Assembly: GCF_988243305.1 (NCBI RefSeq)
Contig: NZ_OZ547136.1
Reading direction: 5' to 3' (one strand)
DNA: 64,000 nucleotides
How positions within the stretch are numbered: the stretch's first letter is position 1; every line of letters starts with the position of its first letter. The position numbers were made by a program, and so were the translations under genes. Positions 59,864 to 60,025 of the stretch are shown in pieces. The notes under the pieces are model-generated. The model was not told the origin of the DNA and searched no databases. It worked only from the letters and a program-made list of their open reading frames with translations.

Positions 59864-60025
59864 ATGCCTGAAATCCCCGTCATACAAGGCCTTCCGCGAT
59901 TTTCCTTTCAACAGAAGTCAATCTGAGTCAACCCACATCAAGTCGCTTGTGAGTATAGAACCGAGTATATATGCTGGTTCGATAATGGTTGTATACTCAC
60001 AGCGGCACATGGAAGGAGAACTTTT

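Follow-up and report, generated by a model that had tools for sequence, protein, structure and literature searches.

Organisation of the region between leuX and the integrase gene

The window is the whole stretch of DNA analysed here, 64,000 nucleotides of contig NZ_OZ547136.1 (assembly GCF_988243305.1), in which the tRNA gene leuX is followed by the gene of a P4-family integrase (int). The features of this region are listed below, where class 1 denotes loci with the GAGTATA motif of the window, A1 to A3 are alignments and L numbers are loci.

59742..59826, plus strand: leuX, tRNA-Leu(CAA), the integration target (ARAGORN; Rfam tRNA, 59.4 bits)
59807..59826, plus strand: att core GAGTCCGGCCTTCGGCACCA; the core that X51522 annotates in P4 attP has the same 20 bp (718-737 of L011)
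59840..59867, plus strand: intrinsic terminator after leuX, a hairpin with a T-run, right of the core (terminator scan)
59866-59877, plus strand: invariant block TGCCTGAAATCC, conserved in the aligned E. coli loci (A1)
59908..59941, plus strand: four TCAA(C/T/G) elements with an exact 10-bp period (starts 59908, 59918, 59928 and 59938), between core and P'1
59948..59959, plus strand: putative arm-type site P'1, TGTGAGTATAGA, left arm of the inverted repeat; aligns with P4 repeat 850-861 of L011; invariant in class-1 loci
59960..59971, plus strand: putative arm-type site P'2, ACCGAGTATATA, with the internal GAGTATA, 12 bp after P'1; aligns with P4 repeat 862-873
59976..59983, plus strand: GGTTCGAT block between P'2 and P'3 (A1, A2)
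59990..60001, minus strand: putative arm-type site P'3, an inverted copy reading TGTGAGTATACA on this strand; forms the right arm of the inverted repeat and aligns with the inverted P4 repeat 889-900
60026..61294, plus strand: P4-family tyrosine integrase, 422 aa (Pfam PF13356, PF22022 and PF00589)

Reading of the sequence bore out the original prediction of a perfect inverted repeat in front of the integrase gene. The 10-nt arms TGTGAGTATA (59948-59957) and TATACTCACA (59992-60001) are exact reverse complements with a 34-nt gap, the additional GAGTATA copy said to lie inside the spacer is present at 59963-59969, and the distance of about 25 bp to the integrase start agrees with an ATG at 60026, 24 nt past the end of the repeat. 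The repeat is also larger than first noted, as a repeat finder returned 15-nt arms (59948-59962 and 59987-60001) complementary at 14 of 15 positions (93%), together with the GAGTATA direct pair at 12-bp spacing. Such a structure could be a functionless product of chance, given that chance alone should yield about three to four perfect 10-nt seeds with short spacers in 64 kb; indeed, perfect inverted repeats of 10 nt whose spacers are at most 50 nt long are not rare by themselves, 24 seeds of this kind being found in the window (3.6 +/- 2.6 in shuffles). Against chance, inverted repeats of 15 nt with at most one mismatch are expected 0.2 times per window, and two were found. GAGTATA occurs 6 times in the 64 kb versus 3.1 expected, with three of the six copies within 48 bp at this locus. 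Because composition evidence alone is only suggestive, the function of the repeat has to be decided by comparative evidence.

The three sites lie 122-175 bp right of the core and thus inside the element, with the core at the element/chromosome junction. Between them, the terminator and TGCCTGAAATCC recur after partial cores in tandem arrays (E. coli loci in A1), and the phased TCAA array is conserved across arm-motif classes, its equivalent place in P4 being taken by three TCCG elements with a 10-bp period. The TCAA elements are candidate sites for an accessory protein, either an excisionase or a bending protein. A search of 59827-60030 for the IHF consensus WATCAANNNNTTR with at most one mismatch gave no match. 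Within the GGTTCGAT block, TTCGAT is unchanged in A2, in P4 and in the E. coli classes alike, and is lost in a few IMG/VR loci (L016 has GGTTCTAT; L033, L036 and L037 are without the block). The same block resembles the leuX T-arm GGTTCGAGTCC (repeat D1, 59793-59808 versus 59967-59982, 81%).

One strain, NH-21 (L001 4128-5305), has ISEc52 of the IS3 family inserted within the P'1 site at about window position 59954; this locus is without an integrase, and IS903B and remnants of other island genes come next. The breakpoint at 59954 was considered as an att junction and rejected, since it is the ISEc52 insertion.

The repeats align with the annotated arm sites of P4 attP

In the P4 attP record (X51522), two direct copies of an "attP arm sequence repeat" lie in one arm and are followed by the 20-bp core and then by the P' repeats, which comprise a direct pair at 12-bp spacing and, where int starts, a single inverted copy. 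Comparison with a P4-like integrase region, which had been suggested as a check, placed all three window copies column for column on these annotated repeats: in alignment A2, TGTGAGTATAGA, ACCGAGTATATA and inverted TGTGAGTATACA superimpose on P4 TTGGGGGCATAA, TTGGGGGCATCT and inverted TTGGGGGCACAT, respectively. This alignment indicates that the window feature is the positional homologue of P4 P'1, P'2 and P'3. The likeness to P4 attP (Pierson & Kahn 1987; X51522, X05947) extends to the leuX target, the identical 20-bp core, the number, orientation and 12-bp spacing of the sites (two direct in P; two direct and one inverted in P'), a core-to-P'1 distance of about 113-122 bp and the presence of TTCGAT between P'2 and P'3. 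For this five-site comparison the window supplies the P' sites, and the P-arm pair comes from class-1 relatives.

By contrast, the motif itself differs, being TGGGGGCA in P4 and TGAGTATA in the window. P'3 of the window lies 24 nt upstream of the ATG, whereas the inverted repeat of P4 overlaps the annotated first start codon. P4 also has a sixth annotated copy within int, while a search for the motif inside the window int found no copy. Finally, P4 is a satellite phage and the window element is the remnant of a defence-gene island (dptFG).

The layout is kept while the motif is replaced in concert

A blastn search with 59827-60060 as query against 5,426 complete E. coli genomes returned full-length matches whose identity ranged between 100% and about 71%, and eight representative regions were aligned (A1). 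Two copies of GAGTATA and one inverted copy occur in the window, in S22EC and in an O157:H7 strain; TGCGGGTA occurs twice, with inverted TGTGGGTA, in S19-141, TC24, MRSN352231 and IGC; and GTTGGTA/GATGGTA with inverted GTTGGTA is found upstream of K-12 intB. The GGTTCGAT block, the phased TCAAC array and the terminator with TGCCTGAAATCC are common to all of these regions.

Searching IMG/VR with the integrase added 25 loci, and together with the E. coli loci and P4 this gave 31 upstream regions for scoring. In 31 of 31, two direct copies with a spacing of exactly 12 bp were followed after about 20-30 bp by an inverted one, which lay 9-80 bp upstream of the ATG. The copies fall into six motif classes (GAGTATA, GYGGGTA, GWTGGTA, CTGGTAA, GGGGGCA and GGTACC), and within each locus the three copies share one motif or differ by one or two bases. 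The layout is still kept in the GGTACC class, whose integrases are merely 35% identical to the query. Within class 1, alignment of four diverged loci (A3) showed GCTTGTGAGTATA, GAGTATAT and the P'3 sequence TATACTCAC to be invariant, whereas the 5 nt separating P'1 from P'2 are hypervariable and different in all four. Absence or lack of conservation in homologous leuX islands had been named in advance as evidence against a function; retention of the layout in every related locus scored favours one. The finding of the same layout in 31 loci with the motif replaced in concert, and of invariant class-1 sites beside hypervariable spacers, also bears on the chance reading, which on these comparisons appears already contradicted and which we consider scarcely credible.

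The arm-binding domain of the integrase follows the motif class

The integrase next to the repeat has a separate N-terminal arm-binding domain, as Pfam detected Arm-DNA-bind_3 (PF13356) in residues 3-87 (E = 2.8e-29) in addition to Phage_int_M (PF22022) and Phage_integrase (PF00589); the protein is 57.7% identical to P4 Int. Across lineages, the site sequence co-varies with this arm-binding domain (31 loci; 16 integrases). Sixteen representative integrases were aligned, and their identity to the window Int was calculated separately for residues 1-90 and for the rest of the protein. Integrases of the same class (class 1) were 82-89% identical in residues 1-90 and 72-82% in the rest. The corresponding values were 64-68% and 78-81% for class-2 integrases (TC24, S19-141 and L032), and 63-70% and 66-69% for two more divergent members of class 2 (L023 and L033). 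The class-3 integrase, representing the K-12 intB motif type and intact in L014, showed 62% identity over residues 1-90 and 83% over the remainder. The gene called intB in the original prediction is thus distinct from the K-12 intB allele. Judged from these identities, the arm-binding domain tracks the DNA motif class among close relatives, and the core-binding/catalytic body does not. Class-specific residues of the integrases cluster in the YWRxRxRxGGK strand region, where they presumably contact DNA.

K-12 intB (L008 1998-2060) has an in-frame TAG at codon 19, counted from the ATG to which the other integrases align, and its annotated CDS begins downstream of this TAG, indicating that the K-12 protein has a truncated arm-binding domain; the three arm sites there are intact.

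The same motif recurs at the other end of related islands

The intact class-1 island of S22EC (L010) ends with ACTGAGTATACATGTGAGTATACA, a 12-bp-spaced GAGTATA pair (22950/22962); some 60-70 bp to the right of this pair comes a partial leuX core, TCCGGCCTTCGCACCA at about 23030, after which the P' arm of a second island follows. On IMG/VR contig 2859744465 (L032, 1207/1219), TTGAGTATACAAGTGAGTATATA lies about 70 bp left of GAGTCCGGCCTTCGCACCA. The two islands are independent, and different cargo genes adjoin the P-arm pair in each. In these two class-1 relatives the same motif occurs in the P arm as well as in P'. P arms of the P4 class, with GGGGGCA pairs, precede partial cores in L003, L014, L018 and L034, and in L006 such a pair precedes the partial core with one copy changed to TGGGGCA. 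The pair at the far end and the P' sites together make up the five-site organisation of P4.

Partial core copies separate tandem islands in L003, L005, L006, L010 and L032, and those of L003, L005 and L006 show the recombination core to lie at the 3' end of leuX. Tandem elements of different arm classes are often found at leuX (L003, L006, L014, L018, L034, L010 and L032), for example with an island of class 2 or class 3 coming after a P4-like satellite, or a remnant of class 2 after an island of class 1. The partial cores that separate them are 16-19 bp long and usually lack one G (TCCGGCCTTC-GCACCA).

S22EC has a further copy of the class-1 motif within a perfect 12-nt inverted repeat, GAGTATAAACAC-N6-GTGTTTATACTC (L010 22040-22069), which directly precedes the gene for an HTH regulator at the right-hand end of the island and is absent from L032. 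This repeat may be an extra Int site, the HTH regulator's own operator or a coincidence. Its position before an HTH gene would fit a reading in which the repeats of the window are the operator of another island regulator (of HTH or AlpA/Vis type) and not of the integrase, as would the reported binding of P4 Vis to attP and its reported repression of Pint. An operator of an island-encoded regulator had also been put forward in the original prediction. However, the sites are perfectly kept in a remnant consisting of int, dptF and dptG only, their motif class follows the N-terminal domain of the integrase, and they are homologous by position to the P4 arm repeats. Furthermore, the second class-1 island (L032) keeps its P-arm pair without the HTH gene and without the extra repeat, for which reason we rejected the S22EC HTH regulator as the binder. 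We therefore find an operator of this kind unsupported and very improbable.

Taken together, the positional homology with P4, the concerted change of the motif across lineages and the presence of the same motif at the other end of the island favour the remaining suggestion of the original prediction, namely that the repeat is part of the attL arm-type sites. The inverted repeat and the third copy most probably (about 0.85) represent three P'-arm Int sites, with P'1 and P'2 direct and P'3 inverted, in the attL of a P4-family leuX island.

Possible control of int expression by the arm sites

The original prediction had also pointed to -35/-10-like hexamers overlapping the repeat, TTGTGA (59947-52) and TATACT (59992-97). 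This pair did not hold up, as 39 bp separate the two hexamers, a distance at which they cannot make up a single sigma-70 promoter. A promoter scan of 59600-60200 found no sigma-70-like promoter of at least 9/12, and the best local candidate, TTGTGA-17-TATGCT, is weak (8/12), overlaps P'1/P'2 and is absent from S22EC. For P4, the predicted -10 of Pint (CATAAT) is annotated over the P'1/P'2 junction (X05947). The Pint hexamers were looked for at the aligned window positions and are not conserved there, a further difference from P4.

In the literature, P4 Int is described as binding DNA directly close to the transcription start of its gene and so repressing its promoter (PMC7286903, PMC2951348), P4 Vis as binding attP and likewise repressing Pint (PMC7286903, PMC2951348, PMC2603039), and IntI of PAI I536 as autorepressed (PMC7286903, PMC2951348). 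KplE1 IntS/TorI and PAI I536 IntI resemble the window in that int adjoins attL and the recombination sites overlap its control region; their int promoters are reported to overlap attL, and negative autoregulation was shown experimentally (PMC2951348, PMC7286903). They differ in belonging to other integrase lineages. Since the sites lie immediately upstream of int, occupancy by Int would probably lower int expression, as reported for P4. By this analogy, we regard autoregulation of int via the arm sites as plausible, with the odds about even. The lack of a promoter of at least 9/12 in the scanned region, the unconserved P4 hexamers and a local candidate that is both weak and unconserved make autoregulation the weak step of the scheme. 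The physical binding of Int, its autoregulation and the position of the promoter are what we infer from the comparisons above.

The repeat as a possible stem-loop in the int leader

The absence of a good promoter at the window int in the scan is also compatible with a different explanation, by which transcripts reading through from leuX into int would carry the repeat in the int 5' leader, where it would fold into a stem-loop and attenuate int. The predicted RNA fold of 59940-60030 is strong (-36.5 kcal/mol, z = -5.95), and the predicted RNA/DNA fold extends the pairing of the repeat to about 20 bp with one bulge. A precedent is ICEKp1, inserted at tRNA-Asn, for which a 2026 study (PMC13023037) describes co-transcription of int with the tRNA, 5'-UTR stem-loops that lower expression and negligible promoter activity of the int 5' flank itself. 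ICEKp1 and the window are alike in having int just downstream of the target tRNA and strong predicted upstream stem-loops (PMC13023037). They differ in that the window has a terminator between tRNA and int, its stem arms are explained by protein-site symmetry and its pairing partner is not conserved.

Several findings speak against this explanation. The repeat is separated from leuX by a canonical terminator, the hairpin lacks a following U-run, and an Rfam scan of 59600-60200 (E <= 1) returned the tRNA as its sole match. A hairpin would also leave the direct P'2 copy, the 12-bp-spaced pair at the far end and the correlation with the N-terminal domain unexplained. Across twelve loci the fold z spans -0.75 to -4.56, with P'3 paired to P'1 in some loci and to P'2 in others. 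This variation in fold strength and switching of the P'3 partner is the pattern of interchangeable protein sites and not of a fixed helix, and on these grounds we reject a fixed RNA hairpin as the primary explanation. Attenuation by a leader stem-loop is accordingly an unlikely account of the repeat. A role of the hairpin as a secondary function is possible, and the inverted sites of the putative P' arm might double as an RNA attenuator of leuX-int read-through.

A second small hairpin is predicted at 60008-60028, where CAUGGAAG pairs with CUUUUAUG across the Shine-Dalgarno sequence and the int start codon; many of its pairs are weak.

A proposed model for the P' arm and possible specificity classes at one shared core

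Bridging of arm and core sites by the N-terminal domain is established for lambda-type heterobivalent integrases and assumed for P4. By the arm-site reading, the N-terminal arm-binding domain of Int would bind each TGAGTATA-type site (P'1-P'3, and P1/P2 in attP or attR), while the C-terminal domains would bind the core in the tRNA 3' end. Arm-core bridging, helped by bending proteins, would then build an intasome that could serve both integration (attP x attB) and excision (attL x attR). Lambda Int likewise has five arm sites, two in P and three in P', and a separate N-terminal domain bridged to the core (PMC9791396). By contrast, the P' sites of lambda are all in the same orientation, whereas P'3 of the window is inverted and the sites abut the int start, and the N-terminal domain of lambda Int belongs to a Pfam family other than that of the window integrase.

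In the literature collection searched, no earlier description of arm-type sites for leuX islands was found. The architecture has been annotated for P4 for decades, and the feature at this locus is ordinary in that respect; what is mildly novel is the set of arm-motif/N-domain classes among integrases with one shared core. That these classes share one core and are often stacked in tandem suggests orthogonal addressing. In this tentative proposal, which we hold to be somewhat less probable than its negation, leuX-core integrases would have diversified into at least five or six arm-site/N-domain specificity classes, and the "addressing" would keep tandem islands recombinationally independent. If so, each Int would assemble on its own arms only, for instance where a P4-like satellite stands beside a class-2 island or a class-1 island beside a class-2 one.

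The comparisons fix the attL anatomy, as core, terminator, phased TCAA array and three putative arm sites, for a common class of E. coli leuX islands, represented here by a dptFG island. They also provide a sequence rule, namely a class-specific motif repeated directly at 12-bp spacing and once more in inverted orientation, by which island ends may be recognised and tandem islands assigned to their integrases. The combination of a variable N-terminal domain and arm motif with a conserved core-binding body offers a natural series for studying and re-engineering arm specificity in heterobivalent integrases.

Cargo of the island and loss of its far end in an identical strain

The cargo in the window (61504-64000; L009 1924-5158) consists of dptF (a 549-aa ORF with no Pfam match) and dptG, which are DNA-phosphorothioation-dependent restriction genes. 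One genome, that of strain 210221272 (NZ_CP016404.1), is 100% identical over the attL query. Its island holds int, dptF and dptG only; dptG is cut by IS1 (IS1A), the fim region is missing save for a fimbrial-gene fragment, and gntP comes next. The island's own attR was sought in this identical genome and none was found, the right end having been removed by IS1. Loss of the far end to IS1 means that the sites are unable to support excision in that strain, where they are probably relics for recombination and may act solely in regulation.
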